Origin: an uncultured delta proteobacterium
GTDB taxonomy: Bacteria; Myxococcota; Myxococcia; Myxococcales; Myxococcaceae
Assembly: GCA_963771175.1 (NCBI GenBank)
Contig: CAVYSY010000032.1
Span: 576,001 to 640,000 of the forward strand
Length of the DNA: 64,000 nt
Direction: 5' to 3'
Shown: one piece after another, positions 36,001-42,000 of the stretch
How positions within the stretch are numbered: position 1 is the stretch's first letter
Layout: the number at the start of each line of letters is the position of its first letter
Made by a program: the position numbers

Positions 36001-39000
36001 AGCTGGACCTTCACCCGCACCTCCTCGGAGATGTTGAAGGTGGGCTCCAGGCGCAGGCGCATGTCGGCGCCGGACTGGGTCCGCTCGGTGGCGCGGGGCG
36101 AGTGCGGGAAGAGCTCGCGGCCGGGCGCCCGGCCCAGATCGAACTGATAGAGGAGGTTGGGGCGCAGGCGGTAGTAGCCGTCCATCGTGAAGATTTCCAG
36201 CTTGCGCTTCTCCTCCACCCACTCCTCCTGCCAGTCACTGGAGAGCGACTGGGTGGCGAGCTGGGCGCGGATCTCCTCGCGCATCTCCTGCTTGGCGGCC
36301 TCGAGGCGCTTGTCCACCTCCTGGCGGATGCGCTCCTCGGTGGAGTCGGCGCCCTCCTGGGCCGGAGTGGCGGGCGCGTTCTCCTGGGCGGGAGCCGGGG
36401 TACCGGTCTGCGACTCCGGCGTCTGGGCGGTGGCCGTAGCGGAGGCGACGAGCAGGGCCGCCAGCAGGGCGTTGGACGACATAGAGGGTTCTTCTCCGGT
36501 GCCGCGCGAGTGCGGCGGGTGCAAAGGGCCGGCGAGTCAAGCGGAGTGCGCCGGGGGTGTCAACGACGTCGAGAAACCGTCTTCCGCCGTGCGTCCGGGG
36601 GTTTACGGCCCGGGTGCAGTGGCTGGCAGCGCGGACAGCAATGGGTGGTGCGCCCTCCCTGGAGGAAGGACTCCACCGTCGCCCCACAGCGCGCGCAAGG
36701 CGTCCCGGCGCGACCGTAGACGAGGAAACGGTTCTCCGCGCCATCCTCCAGGTACGCGGGCTCCTCGCCCTGCTGCTCCTCGAGGCCGAAGGCGATGGAG
36801 GCGTGGATGGCATCCGCCAGCCGTTGCCACTCCTCGGGGGAGAGGGACGCGGGCTTGCGCGAGGGGTGAAGGCCGGCGCGGTAGAGCGCCTCGGCGGCAT
36901 GGATGTTGCCGAGTCCCGTGACGCGTCCCTGGTCCATCAGGGCCACCTTGAGGTCCTGCCGGGAGGTGCCCACGGCCTGCTGGAGTTGCTCGGCGGAGAG
37001 GCCATCGGCGAGCGGATCCCTCCCCAGCTCCTTCACGGCCTCCAGCGAGTGCAGGCGCGAGGCGGCGCAGGGCTCCATGCGGCCGAAGAGGCGCGAGTCG
37101 GCGAAGTGGATGACGTCGCCGGAGTCCAGGTGGAAGCGGGCGCGGCTGTAGGGGACGGGGACGCCCTCGGGGCGGCGGACGAACCGGCCCGTCATGCCCA
37201 GGTGGGCCAGCAGCCCCCGGCCCCCCTCGAAGGTGAAGAGGAGGTATTTGCCGCGCCGCTCCAGGGACTCCAGCCGGCCTCTAATGGAGGCGAAGTCCTC
37301 CCGGCGGGCCCCGCGGAAGACGCGGGAGGCGTCCGCCTCGGCCCTCACGACGCGGCGACCGTCCAGCCAATGGACGAGGTTGCGCCGGGCGATTTCGACT
37401 TCGGGAAGCTCGGGCATGGCGGGTGCGGCATACCACTTCACTTCTGGACGTCCAGAAGCACACCACGCTACTCTCTGGGTGGAGGACTCCTATAGGCGGG
37501 AGTATACTTCACCTCAGCCGTAGGGCTGAGTGGGATGACCTCGCCCGTCGAACAATGTATTTCTGGATGGCGTTCCGACGCGACTCGAAGGCATCCTGCC
37601 TGGACGATGAATGACAAGGAGTTGCTGGAGAAGGCGCTGCATGTGGCGAAAGAAGCGGGCCTTCTCCTGCTCCGCAAGTACGACTCCGTACCCCCGTTCG
37701 GGCTGACCCTCGACCCGGCAGGTGACAATCCAAGAACCTGTTTTCCCCGGGACCAACTGCCACGCGCCTCATGGGACGAGCTGCTCGACGCCACCATCGC
37801 GCATCTCGAGAGCAGCATCGGTTCGGCCGGTGTCGGGGCAATCGCACTCGTCACCACGCTCGAGTCAGGAAGCGAGTCCGGCATTGGCGTCCAGGTCGAG
37901 ACACACGCCTCCTCGCTGTTTCTGGTGTACCCCTACAGCGGAACCGGGCAGAGCCGGAGCCTCGGGCAACCCCTGACGGCGAAGGAGTTGCTCGTTGGCC
38001 CGCTCCTGGCAGGACGCCGAAGGCGCTGGTGGTCCTTTTTCAGCCGGAAATAGTGTCCTGACGGGCTTGAGTGGTTGACGTCTACATCTCCCGGTTCTCA
38101 AGAACTCGCCCGCCATGCCGCGCCAGATTCGACGCTGTTCCGGAGGGAATCTCGTCCTCGTCAGTAGACGATGCAGTCGAACTTCTCGATGACGGCGCGG
38201 ATCTCTTCGAGCGGCGCCTCAAGCCTTTCAGCCAGGACGGGGGCGTAATAGGTCAGCGATTGGGTAGGGGCCGGTTGGGTGTGAAGCTCATCCACGATGA
38301 CACTTCCAAAGAGACCCGGCCACTTGACGCCGCGTAGCTCGGGGGCGCGGCGGATCGGGTCCAGGAAGGTGAAGCAGGGCCACTTGGGAAAGCGAATGGT
38401 GGCGGGGTCGCACCCCATGATGCGGCAGCCATCCAGGCGGGCCTCGGTGAAGTCGCAGTCCTCGATAGAGCCGTGCTGATACCACGGTTCACTCCCGTAC
38501 TCAGGCCAGTGCCCGAAGTCGCACCCAGAAAAACGCCCCTTGAAGCGACAGCCCTTCAGGGATGCGCCTACCCAGCTCTGATGGTTCTTCAACTCCTGCT
38601 TCACCTCGAAAGAGCAGTCGATGAACCTGGCCCCGAGGAGGTGCAGGCGTCTCGCGGATACCTTCAAGACGACAGTGCAGTTGCGCAGCGTCAGGTTGGG
38701 GCCGAGGAAATAGAGCGAATCCTTGTCCGTCACCTCGAACCGCTCGTTTGCAATCTCCCTGTCCGCGACGAGGACGTTCTCCAACCACCCCATGGCCGCC
38801 CCTTTCAGAAGGTGAGCATCCGGAAGAACTCGCCCGCCATGCGCCTGCCGTGACGCGCCAGATGCGACTCCGTTCCGGAGAGGCTCTCGTCCGCGTCAGT
38901 AGACGATGCAGTCGAACTTCTCGATGGCGGCCTTAAACGCTTCCGGGGTGGTCTCGTATCGCTTCGCGAGAGCCGAGGCCAGGAGGGTCACTGCCCTCGT

Positions 39001-42000
39001 GGACGAAGGGTCCCTGTAACGACCCTCGACGTGAATCGGGGTGAAGTTCCCCGGCCACTGGACGCTGTTGAGCTCACGGCTCCTGCTGATGGGCTCCAGG
39101 ATGGTGAAGCAGGGCCACCTGGGAAAACGCAGGGTCTGCGGGTCACATCCATGGAACCGGCAACCGTCCAGGATTGCCTCGGTGAAGTCGCAGTCCTCGA
39201 TGGAGCCGTGCTGATACCACGGCAGGCTCATGTATTCAGGCCAGTGGCCGAAGTCACACCCTGTCAACCGCCCCTTGAACCGGCAGCCCTTGAGGGACGC
39301 AGCCAGCCAGCCCTGGTGATTCTTCAACTCCTGCTTCACCTCGAAGGTGCAATCGATGAAGCGGGGCTGCTTGAAGCTCAGGCGCCGAGCGGACACCTTC
39401 AGCATGAGGGTACAGTTCCTCAGCGTCAGGTCGGGGCCGAGGATGTAGTTGGCCTTCGTGTCCGTCAGTTCCAGTCGCTCGTTTTCGATTTCCCGGTCCT
39501 TGAAGATGACATTGCCGAGCGAATCCATCGCCGCCCCTTTCAGAAGGTGAGCATCCGGAAGAACTCGCCCGACATGCGCCTGCCATGCCGCGCCAGGTTC
39601 GACTCCGTTCCGGAGAGAATCTCGTACCGGGTGCCCGTTGCCGGGTCAACCACATCGACCCCCTTGCTCAGGCTGAAGTCGTAGAGGTGCTCGAACTGCT
39701 CCTTCACCTTGCGCTGTACGTAGCGTCCCCGGGCCTCGCGCTCCAGCAGCCGCGCCAGCCAGTATTCGCCCCGCTTCAGTGCCCGGTCGATGGCATCCAG
39801 TTCTTGCGGCGAGAGCTTGTCAGGCCCCCATTGCTTCGCGGCCCGGGTGATGGCCTCCTGGAACATGTCCCCCACCGTGTCCTTGGCGGGGATGTCCGCC
39901 ACCGACTTGCCGCGCGACAAGTGCCAGCGCTGGCCATCGCTGAGCGCCACCTGCTGGTTGCCGCCCCGGTGCCGCAGCACGGTGGTGGCGGAGCGGCCTC
40001 CCGGGGCCTGTCCCGCCCCATTGCCCTGCCCCTTCTTGAACATCACCACGGCCAGGGGGCCCTGGGGAGAGGTGGCCACCGTCTCCGCCGCCGCCACCGC
40101 CCGGGCCAGCGCCGTCTCCTGTACCAGCGCCGTCTCCGCCGCCACTTCGGGCGCCAGCAGTGCCGCCCCGCCCTGGGCCTCGAACTGCGCCCCCGCCAGG
40201 GAGTAGCCCGGAAGCGACTTCACCCGCGCGGCCACCTGCCCCAGCGTGTGTCCGGCTGAGGGTGGCCACCGCCAGAATCATCGCCCGGGCCGAGTCCTCG
40301 CCCAGCACCCTGCCGAATTCCTCGCCCGCCGCGCGCAGCTCCGCGAAGGTGGTGGCCTCGTGGGCCGCGTTGGCCATGCGGGCCCAGCCGTCCATCAGCC
40401 CGTACACCGTCTCGAGGCCCAGGTAGCCCATGAGGAGGAGGGTCAGGCTGGCGGCCACCGCCTTGGTCGTCGGCTCGGGCACCATCCACAACATGCAGTA
40501 GAGGGCCACCGTCCAGACGACCATGGAGACGAGCGCCCGCACGTCCAGCAGCTCGCGGGATAGGGCCGCCTTCGTCTCGTCGAGCACGTTGCCGAAGGCC
40601 AGGGCCAGGGCCAGTGTCCGCCGGTCGTCCGTGCGCAGGTAGGGCCCGTCGTCCAGCAGGCCCATGCAGTCGCCGCCGCCCTGCCCCTCACACCACCCGA
40701 GGTACTTCGCCCTCAGCGCCTCCTCCGCCTCGGGGGTGAGGGCCACCGGGCCCTGCTGCCTCTCCGGCACCAGCGTGTAGGCCCGGCCCCGGTACATCTC
40801 CAGCCGCCAGTCCCCCGCGCTCGCCACCGTCTCCTCTCCTCCTGGCGGCGGCGGCAGGAGGCGCAGCAGTTCGAGGGCGGCCTCCCGGGGCGTCTTCCCC
40901 CCGAGCCTCACCTCCCGGTAGAGCCGCTGCACGGCCCGCTGGAACTCGGCCGGAGGGATGGGCACCGGCCGGGTGGCCACCGCGCCCGCTTCCAGGAAGC
41001 CCAGCTCATACACGCTGGCCCCTTCCAGGCCGGGCTCCGCCGTGTCGGCCACATGCTCTCGGGGGGCCGGTGGGGGCACGAGCGCCCTGTAGCGGTAGCC
41101 CGCCAGCATATCGCCGCCAGGGCCGCCCGTGGCGCACGCGGAGAAGAGAAAGAGGACGAGGAGAAACCAGCCGCCCAACAGGGGGCGCAGCCGCGCGCCT
41201 AACGGACGCGGGCCATGAAGACGGGGAGACACGGCGCACCTCCAGGAGCGACGCGGCGTACACGCCGTCGCTCCGGGATTACACGGAAACGCGGGTGCGC
41301 CCGTCAAGCCGTTGGGTAAGCCAGTGTCTGAAGGACTCAATAGGTAGGCAGGTAGGCCGCGAACGGAACCGCGGCCCCTCGCGCGGCGGCGCTACGGGAA
41401 CGTCACTCTCTCCAGGATGACGGAGCGCCCGTCCGCGTCCCACAGCGTCAGGGTGTTCGCGCCTCCCGGGCCTCCTCGTAGAAGGCCACCAGGCGCGTGT
41501 GTCAGGCGAAAACGCCAGGACACCGACGCGGCGACAACGGCTGAATCAGCGACCAGAGCCGCCTCACTTCTGGACGTCCAGAAGTAATTATGCATTTTAA
41601 ATGCAACATAACTTCCAGACGTCCAGAAGTGAAGCCGCCAGAATGGGGGAAAACGGGGCCCGTCCAGGGGCGGAGACTGGCGCGGGAGCGCTCTGGATGG
41701 CGCCGTGGCACGCCGGCCGCCACTTCCACCGTCCAGAAGTGAAACGCCCGGGGGCTGCCTTCGTTCTCGCACTCCGGAATGCGCGCATCAGAAGCATTTC
41801 TTACTTGTTGCCGCGCTCACACCTGCGCGAAGACACGTCCCGAAAGACGGCGTCCCCCCCAGTACAAGGGACGCCCTTCCACTCAACCGCTTCTCTTCAT
41901 CGGAGGCCCCACATGGCCGACATCCAGAAGAAGTACACGCCGATGCAGTTCACCCACCTCAAGGGTCTCAAGGGCATCAGCGACGCGGTGCTCGAGTCTC

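Follow-up and report, generated by a model that had tools for sequence, protein, structure and literature searches.

Elements of the IS200/IS605 group and their gene-less derivatives create no target duplication, lack terminal inverted repeats, carry hairpins near their ends and rely on HUH chemistry. Myxobacteria possess polymorphic toxin-immunity cassettes of the sitAI type, reportedly the subject of work by Vassallo et al. in 2017, and in Neisseria the dRS3 and Correia repeats are linked to the sites of minimal mobile elements. These elements are defined in PMC3787668, citing Saunders and Snyder (2002), and their exchange is thought there to run through homologous recombination in the flanks; the available part of that paper contains neither the term dRS3 nor the term Correia. 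REP sequences and REPINs, together with their RAYT transposases, are treated by Bertels and Rainey (2011; PMC3116915).

The DNA considered here is a 64-kb stretch (the window) of the genome G000, an assembly of 58 contigs that is 81.66% complete. A first-pass annotation had proposed that an 18-bp palindrome marks the ends of mobile toxin/immunity cassettes inserted into otherwise syntenic spacers. The features of the locus, in window positions, are:

36560..37417, minus strand: mutM/fpg (formamidopyrimidine-DNA glycosylase), conserved left flank (Pfam Fapy_DNA_glyco 1.4e-27, H2TH 3.1e-19)
37437..41778, no strand: inserted island, 4342 bp (flanks abutting in 12 relatives)
37437..37462, no strand: single hairpin copy 4 nt in from the left junction, an 18-bp perfect palindrome (37441-37458) having a CA..(TG) foot
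37535..38053, plus strand: ORF of 172 aa, no family, weak coding score
38161..38793, minus strand: second putative immunity gene, for a pentapeptide-repeat protein of 210 aa (weak Pfam Pentapeptide_3 and Pentapeptide matches; weak Qnr-like match)
38896..39528, minus strand: putative immunity gene next downstream of sitA5, for a pentapeptide-repeat protein of 210 aa (profile searches)
39540..41340, minus strand: sitA5 polymorphic lipoprotein toxin gene, in two frames in the assembly (NCBIfam NF050093, SitA5_escort)
41564..41632, no strand: hairpin doublet, palindromes at 41567 and 41612 with an AT-rich spacer (sites and folding)
41716..41778, no strand: decayed half-palindrome (..GTCCAGAAGTGAAAC..) and right-end stretch, ~35 nt of it common to the G006, G014, G010 and G003 inserts
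41913..42518, plus strand: Fe/Mn superoxide dismutase gene, conserved right flank (Pfam Sod_Fe_C 3.9e-20; flank matches in relatives)

Window positions 37437-41778 are a strain-variable conflict island, with a kin-killing toxin gene and candidate immunity genes, in the divergent spacer between mutM and the sodB-like gene. Similarity of the left flank to relatives stops at 37436 and that of the right flank restarts at 41779, and the two flanks abut (..ATAACAC/C/ATGCGCG.., junctions marked by slashes) in 12 relatives (G011, G005, G016, G017, G004, G001, G009, G015, G008, G012, G002 and G024), bearing out the proposed insertion into a syntenic spacer. The insertion does start near the first palindrome, though 4 nt before it and not 3 as had been stated; it lies 19 nt from the ATG of mutM, a flank with 87-95% identity in relatives of the genus. 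Depending on the relative, the spacer is empty or holds other toxin/immunity inserts: different ones occupy it in G006/G014, G010 and G003, that of G010 (~3.7-3.8 kb) carrying the AHH nuclease gene already noted in the first pass. These inserts have the same left junction, as well as the right-end stretch listed above, in common. The window island itself, with both junctions, recurs in contigs of four public runs of related strains (X2-X4 among them), and its GC content is 0.661 against 0.697 for the whole window. Neither a target-site duplication at its junctions nor terminal inverted repeats at its ends were found.

The cargo bears out the description of toxin and immunity genes without a transposase, none being seen among its genes. 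The sitA5 product matches the SitA5_escort model (4e-61, 206.8 bits against a cut-off of 160); the lipobox and escort domain lie in the frame 39820-41340 and the C-terminal toxin domain in the frame 39540-40235, the break being due to one extra base near 40254. A paralogue on C43 is intact and reads through, and all 4 public runs of related strains have one base fewer at 40254. The assignment of the C-terminal domain as Tox-REase-9-like (ESM Atlas 0.91) is a lead only. The two pentapeptide-repeat genes are paralogues and are probably both immunity genes; the product of the one next to sitA5 weakly matches QnrB1 chains, the order of toxin followed by pentapeptide-repeat gene is repeated in paralogous cassettes, and SitI models matched neither protein. 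For the 172-aa ORF, DNA matches of 83-88% stand in G011, G014 and G010 at other places, away from sitA5.

The exact palindrome, CTTCTGGACGTCCAGAAG, occurs in the window at 37441-37458 and 41567-41584, a third site with 2 mismatches stands at 41612-41629, and a further decayed copy is seen at ~41716-41745; none of 100 shuffled windows had any match. A search of all of G000 reproduced the earlier counts: 56 sites over 34 loci, of which 39 sites are exact, 7 differ at one position and 10 at two. Of the loci, 22 are doublets and 12 single sites. The doublets are spaced by 40 bp in 14 cases, 43 bp in three, 45 bp in two, and 63, 70 and 113 bp in one each. The exact counts in relatives were likewise recovered (24 in G011, 9 in G012, 2 in G001 and 1 in G005), and in G016 the CTTCTGG palindrome has no site at up to 1 mismatch.

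The family to which these palindromes belong is REP/REPIN-like, confined to the genus and made up of small non-coding hairpins, with 97 covarying sites at 57 loci in G000. Its signature is a CACT-stem-AGTG foot, usually around a GACGTC or GTCGAC centre. When sites were selected by the foot alone (CACT-N14-AGTG), 39 of 73 had at most one mismatched pair of 7, and 28 had none, compared with 0 of 81 for a control foot. The stems comprise 14 different arms, with 2-4 Watson-Crick pair types at 6 of the 7 positions. Each unit is by itself a perfect 22-28-bp palindrome, and the usual arrangement is a doublet of ~68 bp, the two copies of which can pair into one long hairpin; lone copies, tandem arrays of 3-7 units and copies in the middle of inserts also occur. 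Pairwise comparison of the 14 doublets spaced by 40 bp gives a mean divergence of 6.1% and 2.4% for the two palindromes and of 27% for the spacer, while the 12-nt flanks diverge by 48-56% and are unrelated from copy to copy. The family is scattered over unrelated contexts: 50 of 57 loci are intergenic, and the 48 with called genes on both sides divide into 13 divergent, 13 convergent and 22 tandem. In the window, the doublet folds as one hairpin (-25.5 kcal/mol, z -11, none of 200 shuffles equally good), and its spacer, itself palindromic, is of a type also present in G005 and G012. The single left hairpin folds at -5.8 kcal/mol (z -4.0) and the right-end stretch folds no better than shuffles.

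The generic hairpin pattern was detected in 16 of 18 genomes of the genus, with lineage-specific stems, and in none of 120 genomes sampled from the rest of the order. A doublet at C31:222459, ~100 nt upstream of one conserved gene, can be recognised, intact or decayed, in 14 of 17 genomes; its two copies bear the same lineage-specific compensatory changes, and the DNA to its left differs between lineages. It displays concerted evolution at an orthologous site that borders a hypervariable segment across the genus. The hot spot at C26:588351 is empty in G016, G017 and G007, holds the doublet alone in G000, an inverted variant doublet with a cassette in G011, and 2.3-70 kb of inserted DNA in ten other genomes. 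Clean presence and absence of a lone doublet with exact borders was not seen, bar one unclear case.

There is a strong excess of similarity breakpoints at the hairpins. A breakpoint, defined as the end of a match to G000 of at least 300 bp and at least 84% identity, falls within 30 bp of 15 of 33 palindrome clusters, compared with 6.5% of positions drawn at random from the same loci. That control takes no account of intergenic location, where matches are prone to end in any case, and 10 of 37 loci, having no orthologous match, were left out. Variable islands are themselves common, the window containing three specific to G000, two of them devoid of palindromes, so that chance is expected to account for part of the nearness of hairpins to islands. 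The constant junction at several hot spots is no more than the end of a gene.

We considered it possible, though unlikely, that the cassettes are mobile units and the hairpins their recognition ends, moved in trans by an HUH/Y1 transposase (as in IS200/IS605 peel-and-paste) or by a tyrosine recombinase whose 28-bp site would consist of 11 + 6 + 11 bp. Hairpins do lie near both ends of the window island, with its bare junctions; six pairs of palindrome loci 1.9-7.9 kb apart surround toxin, immunity or DUF2381 genes; four doublets on C687 of G011 bracket GIY-YIG, DUF6310/DUF5953 and methylase cassettes; and the clustered breakpoints, the junctions common to the different mutM-sodB inserts, including the right-end half-palindrome, and the RAYT-like HUH proteins of the genome point the same way. 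Yet the right end of the window island is 149 nt past the doublet, with only a decayed copy nearer, and in G011 a doublet sits in the middle of one insert, while in another it is 225 nt and 48 nt from the ends. The palindrome-bounded islands have no cassette ends in common, only the hairpins. Of the other loci named in the first pass, C50 was re-examined, C51, C37 and C31 were surveyed for gene content, and C51 was also set against G011 in one comparison. Moreover, the hairpin is missing from 10 of 12 homologous sitA5 cassette loci and from the empty sites, and no conserved target adjoins the copies. Behind three copies of a kinase-DUF2381 cassette it lies at different distances, and it is absent from the fourth, which indicates separate hairpin insertions. 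No TnpB was found, no RAYT-like gene adjoins the hairpins, and the search for a recombinase gave only one tyrosine-recombinase fragment 1.8 kb from one doublet. The first-pass model is therefore partly supported: insertion, cargo and breakpoint enrichment stand, whereas the palindromes at toxin-island edges, being dispersed doublets that also occur alone, in tandem and within inserts, are a scattered repeat of the genus and not proven cassette ends.

Similarly improbable is a purely regulatory role, in which the hairpins insulate transcription, terminate it in both directions or stabilise mRNA, have no part in DNA movement and are kept at borders between foreign cassettes and core genes, where islands are hence tolerated. 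A stop codon within 100 nt at 26 of 50 intergenic loci, the genus-wide retention of the C31:222459 doublet at the edge of variable DNA, the ability to form strong symmetric hairpins on either strand and the far better conservation of palindromes than of spacers would fit such a role. Against it, a T-run and terminator consensus are absent, the 13 of 48 loci between divergent gene starts are the share expected of random intergenic sites, and the tandem arrays and dispersed unit-like copies point to replication of an element. The left palindrome is also 24 nt upstream of the mutM start codon, where a strong terminator would cut mutM off from any island promoter. That the palindromes are operators for a dimeric regulator of the toxin genes is least credible of all: they have perfect dyad symmetry, and doublets stand 227 nt (window) and 485 nt (C50) upstream of sitA5, but with at least 14 arm variants it is pairing rather than sequence that is kept, many copies follow stop codons or neighbour housekeeping genes, and most sitA5 cassettes are without palindromes.

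The reading that we prefer, with a probability of roughly 55%, is that an ordinary toxin island stands together with a new family of REP-like repeats, which marks, and possibly promotes, points of exchange. The doublets would spread in the form of single-strand hairpins whose movement depends on proteins acting in trans, perhaps the RAYT-like HUH proteins that the genome encodes, and would insert into intergenic DNA that can be spared, the borders of recently gained islands among it; once there, they might provide short dispersed identities or fragile points for the gain, loss and swap of islands. The RAYT-like genes of G000 encode HUH and Tyr motifs, their products scoring 50-53 bits, below the NCBIfam cut-off of 80. 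Such genes are also present in all 5 other genomes of the genus searched, including G016, and their number does not track that of the hairpins. With G000 ~82% complete, the gene for a cognate enzyme may lie in the part that was not assembled.

Among the known systems, IS200/IS605 elements resemble the window island in its lack of target duplication and terminal inverted repeats and in its hairpins near the ends; here, in contrast, there is no conserved target, neither TnpA nor TnpB is encoded within the cassettes or next to them, and the ends do not bear a left and a right hairpin of different kinds. We know of no demonstration in the host genus of transformation-driven flank recombination of the Neisseria kind. 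As described in the available part of PMC3787668, the minimal mobile elements likewise differ among close relatives in the genes held between one pair of conserved flanking genes, and lack mobility genes of their own. The sitAI cassettes share with our locus a SitA5-escort lipoprotein toxin whose C-terminal domain varies, with small immunity-type genes behind it, and occur as many paralogous copies per genome in variable DNA (review PMC10047993, in the part available, where the terms 'palindrom' and 'inverted repeat' do not occur); the downstream genes here differ in being pentapeptide-repeat genes unmatched by SitI models. From REPINs, as far as the accessible text of PMC3116915 describes them, the hairpins differ in that the unit itself is a perfect palindrome, in being linked markedly to the borders of strain-variable islands, and in flanking no RAYT-like gene, the RAYT-like proteins being below the family cut-off. 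There are only ~100 copies, a low number for REPINs. Like REPINs (PMC3116915), the hairpins are short extragenic palindromes, over-represented as fixed-spacing doublets that fold as one hairpin; the repeats are more strongly conserved than the spacers and show compensatory changes, some stand in tandem clusters, the sequence families are specific to lineages, and RAYT-like HUH genes are present in the genome.

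The 4342-bp island (window 37437-41778) is inserted between mutM and a sodB-like gene, similarity of the left flank to related genomes stopping at 37436 and that of the right flank restarting at 41779, and the two flanks adjoin as ..ATAACAC/C/ATGCGCG.. in 12 relatives, of which one belongs to another genus of Myxococcaceae. Neither target duplications nor terminal inverted repeats were found at the island ends, and family scans recovered no mobility gene from the island, whose GC is 0.661 against 0.697 for the window. The genes of the island and its flanks, taken from crude codon-usage calls made in the present analysis, are as follows, with their evidence in brackets.

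36560-37417, minus strand: mutM/fpg (ORF reading, GC3, codon-usage scoring and family scans)
37535-38053, plus strand: 172-aa ORF with no assigned function (ORF reading, codon-usage scoring and family scans)
38161-38793, minus strand: pentapeptide-repeat gene, 210 aa (family scans; paralogue of 38896-39528)
38896-39528, minus strand: pentapeptide-repeat gene, 210 aa (family scans; paralogue of 38161-38793)
39540-41340, minus strand: sitA5 polymorphic lipoprotein toxin gene (match to the SitA5 escort model)
41913-42518, plus strand: sodB-like gene (ORF reading and family scans)

The sitA5 product matches the SitA5 escort model NF050093 at 206.8 bits (cut-off 160) and carries a lipobox (..LFSAC..); the resemblance of its C-terminus to restriction-endonuclease-fold toxins comes from the ESM Atlas only (0.91) and is a lead only. 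The gene occupies two frames with a switch near 40254, and an intact paralogue with a read-through frame lies on contig C43. Since one base is missing at 40254 in 4 of the 4 public sequencing runs of related strains aligned there, the frame break is either strain-specific or an assembly error. Frame changes are also seen in several other sitA5 paralogues of the source genome (C28, C32:208.7k); position 40254, the frame-shifted paralogues and the 82% completeness together suggest that the assembly may hold single-base indel errors. The two pentapeptide-repeat genes that come after sitA5 match none of the SitI models and are putative immunity genes, with TraAB outer-membrane exchange, the delivery route of SitA systems, as the putative means of toxin transfer. 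A Ku-like end-joining gene (window 42598-43575) lies just past sodB; through end joining it could bear on how foreign DNA is captured.

Other inserts occupy the same spacer, with the left junction as in the source genome, G000: 1.2-1.4 kb in the relatives G006 and G014, 3.8 kb, encoding an AHH nuclease and an Imm49-like protein, in G010, and 2.6 kb in G003. About 35 nt of the right end are common to the inserts of these four genomes, including a half-palindrome with a GTGAAAC tail. The G000 island itself, with both junctions, is present in contigs of three of the public runs (X2-X4). One contig of the fourth run, X1, joins 37417 to 41926, at a depth of 2.3 and with 26 nt on the shorter side, which is too weak to use; run joints from 37460-37466 to 41562-41564 were rejected as island deletions, being contigs of other doublet copies. 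On the question of whether the filled genomes form one clade, a tree of the 180-nt left flank left 10 of 15 inner branches open. With 19 nt between the insertion point and the downstream mutM start codon, mutM is cut off from the ~135-nt spacer common to it and sodB in genomes without an insert, and we infer that it is now driven from inside the island.

The 18-bp palindrome CTTCTGGACGTCCAGAAG occurs exactly at window 37441 and 41567 and with 2 mismatches at 41612, with a decayed copy near 41716-41745; 100 shuffles of the window gave 0 matches. The left palindrome begins 4 nt inside the insert; from the right end inward the decayed copy is met at ~37 nt and the doublet, that is, two palindromes around a spacer, at 149-211 nt. 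In the G000 assembly (58 contigs, 9.83 Mb, 81.66% complete) our recount reproduced the numbers of the first-pass annotation, namely 39 exact copies and 56 sites at no more than 2 mismatches in 34 loci, and its exact counts in relatives (24 in G011, 9 in G012, 2 in G001 and 1 in G005) were likewise confirmed. Doublets account for 22 of the 34 loci (spacing 40 bp in 14) and singles for the other 12.

The full palindrome extends beyond the 18-mer as (CC)TCA-18mer-TGA(GG), and is one of many variants with a constant foot and differing but still-pairing stems. This hairpin family (CACT-stem-AGTG) amounts to 97 sites in 57 loci of G000, of which 50 are intergenic by the codon-usage gene calls. Its evolution has preserved structure: among 73 sites picked by the foot only (CACT-N14-AGTG), 39 have at most 1 mismatch among the seven inner pairs (28 have none), against 0 of 81 for a control foot. 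The arms come in 14 different sequences, and 6 of the 7 stem positions show 2-4 types of Watson-Crick pair. Within the genus, 16 of 18 genomes have the form CACT-N4-GACGTC-N4-AGTG, with lineage-specific stems whose N4 pairs are nearly always complementary; elsewhere in the order it was found in 0 of 120 sampled genomes. A variant swap at one orthologous position is seen at C33:326932-326992, where G000 has a CTTGTAGACGTCTACAAG doublet and G005 (locus L066, contig C10) the CTTCTGG variant with an AT-rich spacer.

Aligned with one another, the 14 doublets of 40-bp spacing form a single ~68-bp unit. Between pairs of copies the two palindromes diverge on average by 6.1% and 2.4% and the spacer by 27%; since divergence reaches 48-56% just outside, the unit is a dispersed repeat in unrelated contexts. 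The window doublet folds as a single hairpin (-25.5 kcal/mol, z -11), as does a second doublet (-26.1 kcal/mol, z -9.8), and an Rfam scan of window 36800-42300 returned only three sub-threshold microRNA-precursor look-alikes on the doublet, as expected of a generic long hairpin. In G000 some hairpin variants are also arrayed in tandem, 3-7 units at a period of 41 bp (C3:137399-137670, C7:75793, C23:17808, C27:72878, C51:192492 and C57:143421), each unit consisting of ~30 nt with a CGCT..AGTG foot and a GAAAC tail, followed by an 11-nt spacer; a ~29-nt conserved flank is common to four of the arrays. A CRISPR-like nature was rejected for these arrays, because the spacers are near-identical within an array.

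The relationship of the hairpins to variable DNA was assessed with 37 palindrome loci from G011, G012, G001, G002, G003 and G005, compared with G000 by the ends of matches of at least 300 bp and at least 84% identity, 10 loci without such a match being dropped. A match end falls within 30 bp of 15 of 33 palindrome clusters, against 6.5% of random positions in the same loci, these positions not being matched to intergenic DNA and the relatives not being independent of one another. Two of the 34 loci were traced through the whole genus. The locus C31:222459, which precedes a conserved gene by ~100 nt, holds a doublet or what is left of one in 14 of 17 genomes; the two copies in each genome share the same lineage-specific, pair-preserving changes, and hence undergo concerted evolution. 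Similarity to G000 starts at the edge of the first palindrome in 5 of 16 relatives and no more than 23 nt away in 6 more, and the left flank is of one type in five genomes and different in each of the others. The convergent genes at C26:588351 enclose no insert in G016, G017 and G007 (0-25 bp) and a doublet alone in G000. There, G011 has an inverted doublet of another stem variant beside a cassette; ten other genomes hold insertions of 2.3-70 kb or are split between contigs there, and in most of them the junction has no hairpin. This locus bears on whether the repeat unit might move alone, in that G000 has nothing but the doublet where three relatives are empty, but its borders are blurred and in G011 a cassette adjoins.

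The cargo beside palindromes abounds in conflict genes: SitA5 at 4 loci, SitA6/SitI6, DUF2381 with or without a kinase, TsiV, AHH with Imm49, GIY-YIG, DUF6310/DUF5953 and a DNA methylase. The densest doublet array seen, with four doublets in 7.1 kb (locus L045, G011:C687, 1-9200), brackets separate small cassettes, namely a GIY-YIG nuclease with a protein without known function, DUF6310 with DUF5953, and an N6 DNA methylase.

The first-pass annotation had taken such loci for mobile or recombination-exchanged toxin/immunity cassettes with palindromic ends and no transposase of their own. Insertion into a variable spacer and the excess of breakpoints bear part of this out, but the palindromes do not behave as defined cassette ends, and mobility by means of them is unlikely. 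Homologues of this sitA5 cassette stand at 12 loci, 9 of them in relatives and 3 in G000, and just 2 of these loci have a family hairpin nearby. One 3.06-kb insert confined to G011 has a doublet in its middle, and in another G011 insert the palindromes are set back from the ends by 225 nt and 48 nt. Beyond the hairpins themselves, palindrome-bounded islands share no extended ends save ~40 nt in one pair. Behind a kinase-DUF2381 cassette the hairpin follows different sequence at differing distances in three copies, supplying the stop codon in one, and is absent behind the G000 copy; the differing distances indicate separate hairpin insertions. At the end of a DUF2381 gene in G012 (locus L062, contig C21, ~1990-2070) the reading frame crosses the first palindrome of a doublet with an AT-rich spacer and stops at the element's TAA. 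The scheme in which an empty site holds one doublet and a filled site doublet-cassette-doublet, hinted at by G005 and C26:588351, is ruled out by the empty mutM-sodB and C50 sites, where no hairpin was found. A polarity test, asking whether variable DNA always lies on one side of the oriented doublet, was dropped, as two cases disagree and the spacer can invert between identical palindromes. Two further G000-specific islands of the same 64-kb window, both encoding large surface-type proteins, carry no family hairpin. That at 2491-10629 (8.1 kb; a PqqD-like protein together with FG-GAP and Big_13 proteins, 645 and 1210 aa long) is lacking in G011, where the flanks are 26 bp apart, and only partly alike in G012 and G016; that at 49056-52749 (3.7 kb; a single MopE-motif protein of 1097 aa) is lacking in G011, G012 and G016, whose flanks are 57-188 bp apart. 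Islands are thus frequent and mostly hairpin-free. The constant junction at several hot spots, moreover, is simply the stop codon of a gene.

We favor, with a probability of roughly 0.55, an ordinary sitAI-type island in a minimal-mobile-element-like spacer, overlaid by a new REP/REPIN-like hairpin family. Doublets would move as single-strand hairpins through a trans-acting enzyme and settle in dispensable DNA at island edges, where they may later act as short identities or fragile points at which neighboring DNA is gained, lost or swapped. That the hairpins are insulators or terminators selected at island borders appears doubtful: a scan found no intrinsic terminator (GC-rich hairpin with a T run downstream of genes) at the palindromes, and 13 of 48 family loci lie between divergent starts. 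With 13 convergent and 22 tandem loci besides, the distribution is near the random intergenic expectation. A role as operators for a regulator is very improbable. A sigma-70 promoter scan gave nothing at the palindromes. It is a long shot, finally, that the foot is a true recombination site, a host enzyme of HUH or tyrosine type reading the structure, cutting CACT/AGTG and joining foreign or resident DNA there, such that doublets would be landing pads for genus-wide shuffling of toxin, immunity and defense cassettes, in an integron-like logic of dispersed REP-like hairpins with no linked integrase.

Kin discrimination in myxobacteria relies on large, strain-specific sets of sitA toxin/immunity cassettes, which turn over fast. 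A dispersed hairpin repeat at the exchange points of such islands would be a concrete handle on how they do so, the more so because the family shows concerted evolution and is limited to one genus. Myxococcota would also gain a REP-like family for which no repeat-flanked RAYT gene, the customary partner, is seen. If the link is only tolerance or hitch-hiking, what stands is an ordinary toxin island and a new small repeat family.

Several known systems invite comparison. The sitA5 of the window has the escort-domain lipoprotein and variable C-terminal toxin domain of a SitA/SitI toxin cassette; a sitAI review (PMC10047993) makes no mention of palindromes. As the minimal mobile element is defined in PMC3787668, the mutM-sodB spacer fits, with variable content between constant flanking genes and without mobility genes (12 empty genomes, 4 other insert types and the G000 island). 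Integron cassettes each end in an attC hairpin, with an integrase and attI beside the array. No integrase was found beside the window island or the scanned paired palindrome loci, in a search confined to these loci and not extended to the whole genome, the sole trace being a tyrosine-recombinase fragment on C53. Elements of the IS200/IS605 type have a conserved short target beside the insertion, distinct left and right subterminal hairpins and TnpA/TnpB; here the flanks are unrelated, a search of G000 for the TnpB domain gave 0 matches, and family scans of the cassettes found no Y1 gene.

Of 12 REPIN/RAYT papers listed in a literature search, none mentions myxobacteria. The one REPIN property without a counterpart is a repeat-flanked cognate RAYT gene in G000, an assembly 82% complete. 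Three RAYT-like proteins of G000 (~330 aa), with the HUH motif NHFHLL and a Tyr motif, fall below the NCBIfam cut-off, and no CACT hairpin was found within ~1.5 kb of their genes, which are placed as follows.

C44:35712-36701: RAYT-like gene
C44:175776-176759: RAYT-like gene
C21, near 224351: RAYT-like gene

A divergent gene beside one of them encodes a 294-aa member of a multi-copy family, which recurs in a doublet-bounded cassette of G011. The contigs with RAYT-like matches in G011 and G012 carry no copy of the palindrome, and RAYT-like genes are present in 5 of 5 other genomes searched, whatever their hairpin number. The remaining traits set out in PMC3116915, namely a doublet arrangement, hairpin folding, location outside genes, compensatory changes and stronger conservation of the repeats than of the spacers, all find their counterpart here: 50 of 57 family loci are intergenic, 22 of 34 palindrome loci are doublets (14 at the fixed 40-bp spacing), the two that were folded each giving one hairpin, and the repeats diverge by 2.4-6.1% against 27% for the spacer, with covariation in the stems.
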